Origin: Eledone cirrhosa
Lineage: Eukaryota
DNA length: 64,000 nucleotides
Direction: 5' to 3'
Assembly (NCBI GenBank): GCA_964016885.1
Contig: CAXHJY010000127.1
Location: 8,245-72,244, forward strand
Shown piece after piece: positions 10,321-58,104 of the stretch (position 1 is its first letter; the number at the start of each line of letters is the position of its first letter). The translations under genes and the position numbers were made by a program. Under the pieces are notes generated by a model. The model ran no database searches. It worked only from the letters and a program-made list of their open reading frames with translations, and was not told the DNA's origin.

Positions 10321-10523
10321 ACCAAAGGAATTGTGGTAAGGAACCAAATGGACCATACCGCACCAGAGTACTCAATACTTAGGGTAGTAAAGTAAGGAAA
10401 TAGGAAAAAGTATGACCCCGACGGCAGAGCTCAAGCCGTTTCGACGGCTATTTCTGGACTCAGAGTCCAGAAATAGCCGTCGAAACGGCTTGAGCTCTAC
10501 CGTCGGGGTCATACTTTTTCCTA
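10321..10523 (-). mobile_element. pLTR fold-back, family D (3' half of hammerhead only)
   Basis: Near-perfect ~62-bp arms around 10462; sense arm contains GAAACGGCU-loop-GCCGUC^GGGGUC. Confidence 0.85.
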
Positions 10524-10584
10524 TATATATATATATATATATATATATATATATATATATATATATATATATATATATATATAT

Positions 10585-10775
10585 CATGGCTGCAACTCGA
10601 TTTCTAGTAATGCCATGAGCAGCACAGACTTGACTCTTTAGTCCTGCTGGGGGCTTGCCTATGGCCAGCAATACCATGTATATCAGAAAATGTCACATAT
10701 CAAGTGATGCCTGTGCTTGAAGCTTTTTTTAAGTGAGGAAAGGCTTTGCACAGAGCCAATCCCTCTCTCTGAACA
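10585..10775 (-). mobile_element. Diverged 3' fragment of the bipartite RTE family H
   Basis: Similar to 41677-41955; encodes an AGLKS remnant. Confidence 0.6.
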
Positions 10776-10824
10776 TCGAATACACTTCCGGTATATCGTT
10801 GCCACCACCGCCACTTCAACTACC

Positions 10825-11139
10825 ATATATATAGAAAGAGAGAATGTGTGATGTCAACACCTTCGGTGGCGATCACTTAAATAAACATACTAATTTTCTG
10901 TCACTAATTTTCTCCTAATGCAGTTTATATATAATATCGTCTATTTTTAATGTATCATGGATTACGTTACTGATTACATAAGACAGTGTAACACAGTCTT
11001 CGTTCAATTTCTGTGTATATTGTCAATTACGATTTTATTTGATGTATCATATCTACATCTATATATACCTGCGTATAATATCAATATACACACTACACAT
11101 GCTAGCAGAAAACCACCCGACGGATGGTTTTTCTGCTAG
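10825..11139 (+). mobile_element. Possible short non-autonomous Helitron
   Basis: Ends in hairpin CTAGCAGAAAACCA..TGGTTTTTCTGCTAG|T; the start resembles the 5' end of the 48173 Helitron. Confidence 0.4.
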
Positions 11140-11312
11140 TAATTATAATGAATAAACTATTTATGTAATATCAGCATCTTTCTTAATGTTATTCTTATAT
11201 ATTATGTGTGTGTGTCTGTGTGTGTGTGTGTGTGTGAGAGTTTACATATGTATGCATATATATATATATATATAAATATATATATATATATATATATATA
11301 TATATATATATA

Positions 11313-11686
11313 GTGTTATATTTGGGGAGGGTCATATCTGTGTAATATTGCCAGAATTAATGACAGAACACACTACAATGCAACGGGAGGAAACACAATA
11401 GCACCACTGATGATGTTGCAGATGTGCAACGAAAGAACTTTGATAGACTATATATATGTGTTTGTGTCTATATTGTATCTGTATTTTTGACCGTTGGTCA
11501 GTCAATGGCAACATTGAGGACCGAATACATTAAATTAACCGATATAAAAGACACAGAAGCGAAAACCAACCAAACAGTGAGCGTGTTCTGTTATTAATTC
11601 TGGAAATATTACACAAATATGACCCTCCCCAAGTATAACAATATTTGTTTCGACACACGATTTCATATCAAAAACCTCGCAAAACT
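11313..11686 (+). mobile_element. pLTR fold-back, family G
   Basis: 11313-11372 is inverted relative to 11580-11640, followed by a tail; homologous to 52423-52873. Confidence 0.8.
11404..11443 (+). ncRNA. Minimal hammerhead ribozyme (family G), weak stem I
   Basis: CUGAUGA U GUUGCA-GAUG-UGCAAC GAAA GAAC UU^UGA. Confidence 0.65.
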
Positions 11687-11693
11687 ATATATA

Positions 11694-11888
11694 TAGTAAT
11701 AATAATAAATTTGAAGACTAAAATCCAAAGAGGGCTCGATAAGGAAAATATATATCAGATATATAAGAACCCTAGAGCAAATATTTATTAAAATAACAGA
11801 TTAAAGTTTAAGCAAAAAATCGCTGCTTTCACCCTTAACGGGTGAAAGCAGCGATTCTTTGCTTAAACTTTAATCTGTTATTTTAATA
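11694..11888 (-). mobile_element. pLTR fold-back, family E, axis in hammerhead stem II loop
   Basis: Arms 11786-11834 and 11840-11888 around TTAAC. Confidence 0.85.
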
Positions 11889-11990
11889 TACATATATATA
11901 CATATATATACATATATATATATATATATATATATATATATATATATATATATATATATATATATATATATATATATATATATATATATA

Positions 11991-55507: not shown

Positions 55508-56088
55508 ATACTCTTGACTTGACAATTGATGTAATTGGTCTAAGTTTGGTAATGTTGAGCCGCTCACTGATACAGATACGGTCGCTGAGCCGCTTGTCAG
55601 TCATAAGTCTCATGATATGGTTCTGGAATGTAGAGAGCTTCTGAAGTGACCTTGTCGTCCAGTTAACACAGTCAAGACCGTATAACACAACTGGTATGAT
55701 GTATGTATCAAAGATCTTAGCCTTCAAATGATAGGAAACTCGTTTTGGTGTTAGTACTTCCTTGTTCTTGTTGAAAGCTGCCCAACCTAGAGCGATGCGA
55801 TACTGCGCAGCGACCATTCCACTGTTGTTTGATGATAGTCTGTGACTGAGATATACAAACTCTGTAACTTGAGCAATTTGTTGGTTGTAGATTGTGAGTT
55901 GGAGATTGGCATTGTTGTTATCAGTTGTCATACACTTTGTTTTGGAGATGTTTATGTGTAAGCCAGCCTCCAGCGAATGTTTAGTCAGTACATTCAGAAA
56001 GTCTTGCAGATGAGTTCTAGAGTAACTCATAATGGCGAGATCGTTTGCATAGCTAAGATTTGATAGGATTTTACCTCCTATTTGATAA
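55506..56088 (-). pseudogene. RTE-clade reverse transcriptase fragment
   Basis: SNLSYANDLAIM (YADD-like), GLHINISKTKCM, VTEFVYL, RIALGWAAF, PVVLYG. Confidence 0.9.
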
Positions 56089-56970
56089 ACAGAGGAGCAT
56101 ACTGTATTACTTGTAAATATTCACAATGTGTCACTAGTAGAAGGCTTTAAGTGTGTGAATGAAACCATATGAAACGACATTAAGACATTCTTTGAAAGTA
56201 CAAAATAATACAATGGAAGACTGCATCAGGTTAAATGTTGTAATAGCTATTGTGCTGAATTATTACATAATATTGTAAGAGACAGACAGACAGACAGATA
56301 GATAGAGAGATAGAGAAGGGGGGATATATAGATAGAGAGAGAGAGAGAGAGAGAGAGAGAGAGAGAGAGAGAGAGATGGATAGAGTGAGATAGATAGATA
56401 GATAGATAAATAAATAGAGAGAGAGATAGAGAGAGAGAGAGAGAGAGAGAGAGAGAGTGAATGAGTGAGAGAGATAGATAGAGAGAGAGAGAGAGGCGAA
56501 GGGAGGGAGATAGATAGATAGATAGAGAGCGGGAGAGAGAGAGATAGACGGAGGGAGTGAGATAGATAGATAGATAGATAGATAGATAGATAGATAGATA
56601 GATAGATAGATAGATAGATAGATAGATAGATAGAGCGAGAGAGAGAGAGACGCTCACAGACAGAGAAACAGACAGACACACAGATAGATACATAAAGAGA
56701 GAGATGGGTAGATAGATAGATAGATAGATAGATAGATAGATAGATAGATAGATAGATACATAGATAGATAGAGAGAGAGACAGACACAGGCAGACAGACA
56801 GACAGACAGAGAGAGACAGAGATATAATGTTAGAAAGGGAGAGGGAAACTATATATGTATATATATATGTATATATATATATATATATAAATATATATAT
56901 ATATATATATATATATATATATATATATATATATATATATATATATATATATATATATATATATATATAT

Positions 56971-57240
56971 CAGCAGAGGAGATATTCAATTTGTTGGTAA
57001 TTCAACAAATATAAATGTTTATAACTGATTCAAAGCACTCGACAAGTTTTCTGGAGTAAATATTCAATGATATTAAATAAATGGAAACTATATTTATAAA
57101 ACCATATTTATTCTATTATATATATTTCAAGGACACCAAAAACTTTGGTACGCTTTCATCAGATAAAATACAAAGTTTGTTTTATAAATAATGACATATC
57201 CAGGAAAATACGTTAACGGTTCAAGTTATCCTTGGATAGT
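56971..57240 (-). mobile_element. pLTR family C
   Basis: Reverse complement of ~5185-5430. Confidence 0.82.
57111..57168 (-). ncRNA. Hammerhead ribozyme family C
   Basis: UUUUAU CUGAUGA AAGCGUACCAAA..UUUGGUGUCCUU GAAA UAUAUA UA^AUAGAA. Confidence 0.82.
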
Positions 57241-57356
57241 GGACTTAAAGACAGATTTTTTTCAAAATTGTTAAGATGAGTATGCAAATGAATATGTAAA
57301 TGAGGTTAATATATATATATATATATATATATATATATATATATATATATATATAT

Positions 57357-57581
57357 ACGTAGGTCCCGGGTTGAGTCGGGGATAACCACAGTAAGTAAGG
57401 TACTCAATACATGGCAGAGTAAAATTTTTTTATTTTATAGAAGGAGCTTCTACAGGACTAGTACTGTTTCATTCAGATGAAATCTTCAGGAAGCTGTATG
57501 AAGAAGCTTCCTGAAGCTTCAGAAGCTTCCTGAAGATTTCATCTGAATGAAACAGTACTAGTCCTGTAGAAGCTCCTTCTA
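57357..57581 (-). mobile_element. Family F variant fold-back with two hammerheads (57445-57495 minus, 57524-57574 plus)
   Basis: AGCUUC CUGAAGA U UUC-AUCU-GAA U GAAA CAG-UACUAGUC-CUG UA^GAAGCU. Confidence 0.85.
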
Positions 57582-57589
57582 TATATATA

Positions 57590-57876
57590 TATATTAAAAT
57601 ATAAATATTAATAAAATAGATGTTCTTTTGATCAATTACATTTTATTATACATATTTCGGATGTACAACAGTACGCCCTCATCAGACAAGGTGAGGACGT
57701 ACTGTTGTACATCCGAAATATGTATAATAAAATGTAATTGATCAAAAGAACATCTATTTTATTAATATTTATATTTTAATATTAATAACTCAGGAAAATT
57801 ATTTTCCGTACAGTGCTTCCAATCTATTGTAAAACTCATTCTTTGATGTACTCATTGAATATCGTTTAACACTTTA
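57590..57876 (+). mobile_element. pLTR fold-back, family K
   Basis: Arms ~57591-57681 and 57692-57783 plus tail. Confidence 0.82.
57643..57689 (-). ncRNA. Minimal hammerhead ribozyme family K
   Basis: UUGU CUGAUGA GGGCGUAC-UGUU-GUACAUCC GAAA UAUGUA UA^AUAA. Confidence 0.8.
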
Positions 57877-57884
57877 ATATATAT

Positions 57885-58104
57885 ATAACAGATTAAAGTT
57901 CAAGCAAAGAATCGCTGCTTTCACCCTTAACGAGATCTTCTGAAGTTTCAGAAGATCCCGTTAAGGTGAAAGCAGAGATTCTTTGCTTAAACTTTAATCG
58001 GTTATTTTAATAAATATTTGCTCTACGGTTCTTATATATTTGATATATATTTATCCGTATCGAGCCCTCTTTGAATTTTAGTCTTCAAATTTATTATTAT
58101 TACT
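57885..58104 (+). mobile_element. pLTR fold-back family E (CAGAAGA core)
   Basis: Arms around 57945-57946, tail to 58104. Confidence 0.83.

Follow-up and report, generated by a model that had tools for sequence, protein, structure and literature searches.

Inversion junctions of short Penelope-like insertions in Eledone cirrhosa probably mark the 5′ end of the element RNA

The window analyzed here is a stretch of 64,000 nucleotides (nt) from the 3.0 Gb genome of Eledone cirrhosa (contig CAXHJY010000127.1, positions 8,245 to 72,244 of the forward strand). About 65% of it is simple repeat, and between its (TA)n runs lie many elements of 50–450 nt that belong to at least ten families, most of them with a type I hammerhead motif; many are head-to-head pairs made of one long arm and one short arm. 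These elements, whose families were named A to J in this analysis, are insertions of Penelope-like elements (PLEs) in (TA)n, each a short piece of the pseudo-long-terminal repeat (pseudo-LTR). Mapping of the arm ends of related copies showed that, in four of the five families tested (A, B, C, and D), they pile up at one base, and the inversion axis probably marks the capped 5′ end of the element RNA, where copying would run off and two complementary DNAs (cDNAs) would be joined.

A sequence-only reading of the window had placed the inversion axes on the ribozyme itself and had proposed that reverse transcription stalls or self-primes at the folded hammerhead, independent of family. All 11 junctions that it listed are true head-to-head inversions between (TA)n runs; in each of them, one or both arms end within or at a hammerhead motif, and seven of them fall on the pile-up base of their family. 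Five window junctions that lie outside ribozymes had been omitted (5169, 11374–11400, about 13030, 16129, and 47275). The insertions are given below, with arm-end positions counted from the family pile-up base (0) in the order long arm/short arm; for family F, they are counted from the hammerhead core.

5065–5433, family D insertion, absent from the earlier list: long arm from 5169 (+2); the hammerhead core follows 75 nt further on, at 5244.
10322–10521, family A insertion: junction 10462, 0/0; long arm 10322–10460 (reverse strand), short arm 10464–10521 (forward strand), an extra G on each arm (10461, 10463).
11313–11687, family F insertion, absent from the earlier list: junction 11374–11400, −31/+182 of the core, neither arm in the ribozyme.
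11697–11885, family C insertion: junction 11837, +13/+14; stem II hairpin fold-back with an 11-nt overlap.
11993–12182, family A insertion: short arm (reverse strand) ends at +7; long arm (forward strand) from 12045 (0), extra G at 12044.
12574–12763, family A insertion, absent from the earlier list: long arm (reverse strand) ends at 12711, extra G at 12712; short arm from +7.
12797–13200, family H insertion, absent from the earlier list: junction near 13030, downstream of the ribozyme.
15374–15559, family B insertion: junction 15507–15511, +1/0; 5-nt linker ending in an extra G at 15511.
15833–15969, family C insertion: junction 15915; long arm cut at +78, short arm to +17.
16129 (+55) and 47275 (+54), family A junctions, absent from the earlier list.
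16774–16970, family A insertion: junction 16832, 0/0; the single linker base 16832 reads as the short arm's extra G.
21570–21622, reverse strand, family B solo short arm: extends between +1 and the inner start.
27228–27320, forward strand, family D solo: the usual end of D lies about 65 nt upstream of its start; joint with (TG)n through shared letters.
29366–29567, family B insertion: junction 29501, arms end at −1/+1.
40046–40222, family C insertion, absent from the earlier list: long arm (reverse strand) ends at 40205, extra G at 40206; short arm from a point downstream of the ribozyme.
47420–47714, reverse strand, family C copy: from −216 or further to +74; 47492 is no end.
52423–52872, family F insertion: junction 52661; short arm ends at the core (−1), long arm from +92; 7-nt overlap.
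56972–57241, reverse strand, family D copy: ends at −4, upstream of its own ribozyme.
57358–57579, family B variant insertion: junction 57496–57523, −1/0; 27-nt linker of repeated junction pieces.
57596–57876, family E insertion: junction near 57690, in stem I or the core; family E was not mapped.
57885–58103, family C insertion: junction 57945; long arm from 57944 (0), short arm ends at +3.

Three solo copies had likewise been said to begin at stem I. The one at 21622 does (family B, +1), but the copy at 47492 continues for at least 216 nt upstream, to 47714 or beyond, and the family D copy at 27229, though its start is close to stem I, abuts (TG)n, D's usual end lying about 65 nt upstream. 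The window's family A copies, among them those at 10462, 12044, and 16832, lack the 5′ half of the ribozyme: they start in loop II, and the parent element has its first core box 43 nt further upstream.

Copies were gathered by their 3′ ends, together with by-catch in all loci and in 36 genome stretches chosen regardless of families; family A, whose 3′ words are too common for a DNA search, was sampled as by-catch. The sampled matches are the copies nearest to the window's subfamilies and do not represent a random draw. Loci repeating the window and anchors less than 300 nt from a locus edge were left out, and 54 of the 258 rows were removed as selected on 5′ sequence (26 of A and 28 of B), leaving 204 copies (A 47, B 36, C 44, D 46, and F 31) with 100 inversion junctions. 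Arm ends were mapped on natural long copies with an accuracy of about 3 nt, a few rows being mis-assigned.

As the sequence-only reading had anticipated, junctions were strongly non-uniform along the elements. Arm ends within 10 nt of the pile-up base made up 50 of 71 in family A (21 expected if uniform, binomial p 1.5e-12), 24 of 36 in B (10.8 expected, p 6e-6), 20 of 40 in C (9.9 expected, p 5e-4), and 21 of 57 in D (6.2 expected, p 3e-7). This base is the first nucleotide of stem I in families B and C, lies inside loop II in family A, and in family D precedes the core by 77 nt and the ribozyme by about 70 nt. Genome-wide, solo copies abutting (TA)n, counted on the reverse strand only as forward matches overlap, numbered 559 at the base versus 66 in the core for family A, and 33 versus 4 for family D, in which the two sites have an equally short match to the target. 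Two candidate starts of family F were rejected, as neither +92 to +96, with 8 reverse-strand solos, nor −8, with 21 solos within 13 nt that are mostly placed there via shared AT letters, stands out; none of the 31 sampled long arms ends close to −8.

Contig depth gave a similar picture, within limits: in run X1, the summed depth rises from 162,577 to 2,643,943 at the base (16-fold), stays flat over the ribozyme (2.3–3.1 million), and falls to 9,413 after +140 (a drop of about 250-fold), and in run X4, it steps from 449 to 9,982 at the base, but such depth is rough and cannot be read as a number of copies, the subfamilies vary in their upstream sequence, and X1 may come from the same sample as the window. 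Runs X5 and X6 contained too little element sequence for a depth reading.

That a folded hammerhead, or another 5′ hairpin, stalls reverse transcription or self-primes and thereby sets the axis would agree with several of these observations. The ribozyme is indeed often involved, with an arm end inside it at 69 of the 100 junctions; the B and C ends pile exactly on the first base of stem I, the D pile is the foot of another hairpin, and stem II fold-backs occur at a few junctions (11837; L092, L129). The 69 junctions are explained, however, by the ribozyme filling most of the 60–75 nt from the start to the inner site in families A to C. Once the pile was removed, the ribozyme body was not enriched in ends in any of families A, B, C, D, and F (A, 11 of 21 with 13.4 expected; B, 6 of 12 with 9.8; C, 11 of 20 with 12.5; D, 16 of 36 with 13.3; F, none of 29 downstream ends with 4.9). 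Ends within the ribozyme thus exceed a uniform model, as had been supposed, but the excess sits at one base and is not spread over the ribozyme.

Family D separates an RNA end from a ribozyme effect, because 21 of its arm ends lie at the pile-up base and 2 at stem I (p 7e-5). The A pile inside loop II likewise speaks against a ribozyme that sets the axis independent of family, and only 1 of the 13 family F junctions touches a ribozyme. The ribozyme of D folds best among those tested (z −2.0), yet shows no end hotspot, and for those of B (z −0.24) and C (z +0.59) the fold is no more stable than in shuffled sequences. To end at the 5′ foot of stem I, the enzyme would moreover have had to unwind the entire ribozyme beforehand, and a stall leaves the extra G described below unexplained. 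Naiad PLEs, which lack canonical hammerheads, still form the same inversions according to the main text of PMC8557442. We consider a stall at the fold unlikely as the origin of the axis, and as a general rule it fails.

The surroundings of the pile-up base resemble those of a transcription start. A TATA-like box lies about 30 nt upstream of the base in the A and B parents, an initiator-like hexamer has its A on the base in A and C, and an AT-rich box 31–36 nt upstream is common to C and D, D having in addition an initiator-like motif at −3; the standard consensus motifs and spacing rules for TATA boxes and initiators served as the reference. In the sampled loci and the matches listed, an untemplated G, coming from neither template nor target, was found on 20 of 37 arms ending at the base versus 6 of 38 interior ends (Fisher p 6.5e-4). 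It was present on 9 of 14 such arms in A, 10 of 17 in B, and 1 of 6 in C, and on 11 of the 16 short arms ending at the base; the window has it at 10461, 10463, 12044, 12712, 15511, 16832, and 40206. A hand count of solos among the first 100 matches listed gave a G in 25 of 70 distinct loci for family B versus 10 of 80 interior ones (p 0.001). Extra Gs that come from copying of the cap are known in other retroelements, for which our literature search gave no paper, and an untemplated G at the base is what a copied cap would give. Because of these motifs and of the untemplated G, the pile-up base is likely the transcription start, that is, the capped 5′ end of the element RNA, and the promoter would lie within the pseudo-LTR; for a Polymerase II start, which gives capped 5′ ends, both are indirect signs. 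A start was located in the pseudo-LTR of Penelope in the text of PMC2377424, and TATA plus initiator motifs were noted in rotifer pseudo-LTRs in that of PMC3846280.

Several points weigh against the base being a capped end, besides the limits of the depth data. The pile-up bases were picked after the data had been seen, family F shows no pile in its 31 sampled copies, and family C has no clear TATA box at −30 and only a weak G signal (the 1 of 6 above). In the hand count of family A solos, the G was found in 15 of 71 versus 10 of 80, which is not significant (p 0.19), and it was absent from the family D solos listed, for which the search pattern left little room for a G. A G on both arms of one symmetric junction can come from a fold-back too, and later deletions at palindrome centres could account for some of the asymmetry between arms. 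Finally, the base coincides with the 5′ foot of a helix in B, C, and D, so that only family A and the extra G separate an RNA end from a hairpin foot.

Self-cleavage of the hammerhead could also make the RNA 5′ end at which copying stops, and the text of PMC4209133 proposes that PLE hammerheads serve for cleavage to unit length. Nevertheless, arm ends within 2 nt of the predicted cleavage site numbered 0 of 76 in A, 0 of 51 in B, and 3 of 66 in C, versus 27, 14, and 13 at the base, and the copies retain sequence 5′ of the cleavage site. The probability that we give to this explanation is close to nil; it is refuted for these families, barring mis-predicted cleavage sites, and ribozyme cleavage was apparently not used for these insertions.

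The motifs themselves have the two core boxes, the three helices, and the order of type I hammerheads. The family A parent folds as a hammerhead with a U3-A8 core (L211:2900–2995), and its loop II contains a TATA-like box and an initiator-like motif, which is why short family A copies contain just the 3′ half. Families B, D, F, and H have the usual first core box. Most family C copies (compare window 40152–40205) carry A in place of U at position 4 of the core, and their stem II has a U.U pair at its foot; hammerhead activity is doubtful in this family. An Rfam scan gave no hammerhead among the best 150 of 586 matches, these rows being microsatellite-driven microRNA matches.

The outer ends of the arms are fixed as well. 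Each family has two arm starts, which in family A lie 60 nt (inner) and 140 nt (outer) behind the base. Short arms began at +60 in 33 of 42 cases in A, at +74 in 13 of 22 in C, at +181 to +183 in 14 of 21 in D, and at +239 to +246 in 11 of 13 in F. The stretch between the inner and outer starts forms a “tail” on one arm only, and both start sites lie at TA-like letters common with the target. At the axis, the further-reaching arm ended within 10 nt of the base in 27 of 29 junctions in A, 12 of 15 in B, 11 of 22 in C, and 13 of 21 in D. Over the 100 junctions, the short arm extended further 5′ in 50, the long arm in 24 (p 0.003), and both equally in 26. The joints consist of shared letters that overlap in 51 cases and of linkers in 41, 8 being blunt, which agrees with the template switching that the sequence-only reading had invoked to make the joint.

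A single cDNA that runs off the RNA 5′ end, folds back, and copies a second strand up to the inner site, with later palindrome deletion producing the asymmetry, would need one primer instead of two, and the start would still set the axis. The 26 symmetric junctions and the 51 overlaps fit such a course, some junctions match a 3-bp stem with a 4-nt loop (L004), and the TA-like letters at both start sites could close the second strand onto the target. However, because a fold-back copy of the long arm cannot outrun the long arm, the 50 junctions at which the short arm does so disfavour it. L005, L039, and L057 have short arms that reach the base and carry the extra G, next to long arms truncated at +6, +20, or +62, and the solo short arm at 21622 and the junctions with loops of 0–1 nt or with foreign linkers do not fit either. 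We judge this course quite improbable. An antisense transcript that self-primes at its 3′ end, as proposed for rotifer PLEs, would account for the head-to-head order and for intron retention (text of PMC3846280), but does not predict ends at the sense-strand TATA/initiator position or an untemplated G there, and the template in vitro is the sense RNA (text of PMC11167929); it appears highly improbable.

We favor two cDNAs that both copy the 5′ end of the RNA. The use of two primers appears more likely than not, though less sure than the start site, because a fold-back fits the symmetric and stem II cases and later deletion could add asymmetry. In this scheme, the endonuclease would nick both strands of the (TA)n target, and each nicked 3′ end would prime first-strand synthesis, from the outer start site on one strand and from the inner site on the other. 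Copying begun on the 5′ pseudo-LTR of the RNA would give a short run-off product similar to retroviral strong-stop DNA, often with the cap copied. The two cDNA ends would then be joined through a few shared letters, untemplated bases, or template jumps, and a cDNA that is invaded would lose its 5′ part. The hammerhead would be involved only through its place at or near the RNA 5′ end, stem II giving a fold-back hairpin in a minority of cases.

Three observations concern the arms and their joints. The linker of a family A junction (L131:300–414) looks like the first part of the reading frame of the element itself, which suggests that a template jump preceded the joining. An alignment of the tails, one row of which had wrong coordinates, showed no shared motif. 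The inverted arm of family A was considered as a natural stem II and rejected, as this arrangement had no genome match and the true upstream sequence differs.

A broader proposal, which we find plausible though short of probable, is that PLE insertion is two-primer by design: a dimeric enzyme would begin one first-strand cDNA per nicked strand at two fixed sites, both cDNAs would extend to the cap, and their join would yield inverted pseudo-LTR and one-sided tail at once. The more than 10,000 strong-stop-like copies of this genome would map the start of each family to the base, and promoters would be built onto the ribozyme. The first transcribed base would then be the first base of stem I in B and C, and the promoter of family A, being inside loop II, would leave a 5′ half-ribozyme that only the 3′ pseudo-LTR copy of the RNA could complete.

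In the twin priming of L1 elements, each of two 3′ ends of the target primes a cDNA, and joining of the two cDNAs via short shared letters gives a 5′ inversion. There, the inverted part is a different stretch of the RNA with a free start, and the two parts do not overlap, whereas in our families one and the same stretch is copied into both arms, starting at two fixed sites; the inversion works like twin priming without having that structure. Minus-strand strong-stop DNA of LTR elements is a short cDNA that starts internally, not far from the 5′ end, and runs off at the capped end. Unlike it, the product proposed here would involve no tRNA primer or strand transfer and, being target-primed, would stay in the genome.

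The parent elements carry PLE proteins. The family A parent L211 is a 3118-nt tandem unit with a single 719-amino-acid frame, which has YxDD at 348 and a GIY-YIG-type motif at 591 and so combines, as in endonuclease-positive (EN+) PLEs, a reverse transcriptase with a C-terminal GIY-YIG nuclease. For family A, the motifs that the text of PMC8557442 lists for the Hydra clade were found, together with the (TA)n target: RWR (RWK-like) at 37, DKT at 117, CxCX5C at 572, CxxC at 670, and CxH at 698; the nuclease has one cysteine between its two boxes and no CCHH. Among the Atlas neighbours of the protein (0.97–0.99), part of the members carry HTH_animal, GIY-YIG, and RVT_1, and a Pfam scan and a solved-structure search with the same protein gave no match. 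The EN+ architecture is also seen in L211 and L212 as a partial tandem, pseudo-LTRs, an inverted 5′-truncated copy, and a one-sided tail, the last being backed by the fixed short-arm starts and by loose (TA)n ends at two sites 80 nt apart. With 10,149 genome matches to one exact pattern, family A has more than 10,000 copies.

Related frames lie upstream of family C (L079, L082) and family F (L170), and none was tied to B or D. L170 is a near full-length family F parent with an asparagine-rich N-terminal stretch and a CX4CxxC linker of the Neptune/Nematis type. Family B copies that keep the promoter (L003, L005, L016, L019, L020, and L026) have 400–600 nt more upstream, non-coding and internally duplicated, followed by microsatellite; this family may be non-autonomous.

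Compared with the Hydra-clade PLEs in the text of PMC8557442, family A shares the protein motifs, the pseudo-LTR hammerhead, and the (TA)n targets, and L211 the partial tandems, the inverted 5′-truncated copy, and the tail on one arm. However, the tail is about 80 nt long here versus 30–40 nt there, and most copies are short pieces that extend from the tail up to one fixed base on the 5′ side. In the text of PMC4209133, the minimal type I hammerheads described for metazoan PLEs have the same type I order, weak helices, and U3-A8 core (as in family A), and occur in pairs on opposite strands, mostly in truncated copies; family A differs in that its stem III is closed and its loop II measures about 45 nt. 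In vitro, the Poseidon protein of Anolis carolinensis nicks and extends both strands with two internal start sites on an uncleaved RNA template (PMC11167929). As in our families, the two internal starts bound the tail and the targets are AT-rich; unlike that study, whose text is silent on the 5′ junction, our data place the two sites at the outer ends of the arms of one insertion.

Inverted copies, tails, (TA)n targets, pseudo-LTR hammerheads, and the U3-A8 core are thus already described in the texts of PMC8557442, PMC4209133, and PMC3846280, and tandem retrozymes are treated in that of bioRxiv 10.64898/2026.07.22.740005; PMC3088659 contributed nothing further. The formation of the inverted repeats and one-sided tails of PLEs and the role of the hammerhead are called open in the texts of PMC8557442, PMC11167929, and PMC3846280. 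Our literature search, which covered few subscription papers and main texts without supplements, found no map of PLE inversion axes to starts, no cap signature, and no two-primer or twin-priming model. The junction map gives a testable answer, in which the axis would be the RNA 5′ end and the arms two first-strand products, with no need for ribozyme cleavage. It also offers a reading of PLE start sites from the genome alone, predicts a promoter inside a ribozyme loop, and makes an open step of PLE transposition directly testable.

Other elements of the window were noted in passing. Family H (window 12797–13200; L221, L224, L228, and L229) is a 420-nt head-to-tail tandem unit with a hammerhead, retrozyme-like, which also makes inversions and inserts in (TA)n; it had been considered as a ribozyme-free control and was rejected because it has a hammerhead itself. 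A family G inversion (51961–52387) has a hammerhead with a long stem II, its long arm running from stem I and its short arm ending at the second core box. Further hammerhead families lie at 12217–12484, 39774–39905, and 16623–16738, with a long stem II (I) or the canonical short one (J), and inverted repeats in which no hammerhead core was seen lie at 4249–4430, 41164–41616, and 60400–60503. At least seven tandem 127-nt units of a repeat resembling short interspersed elements occupy 58243–59205, and the same repeat is found at 14861–15060, where it splits a family A long arm. A 108-nt tandem array at 52931–55500 is duplicated en bloc, the block measuring about 1.2 kb.

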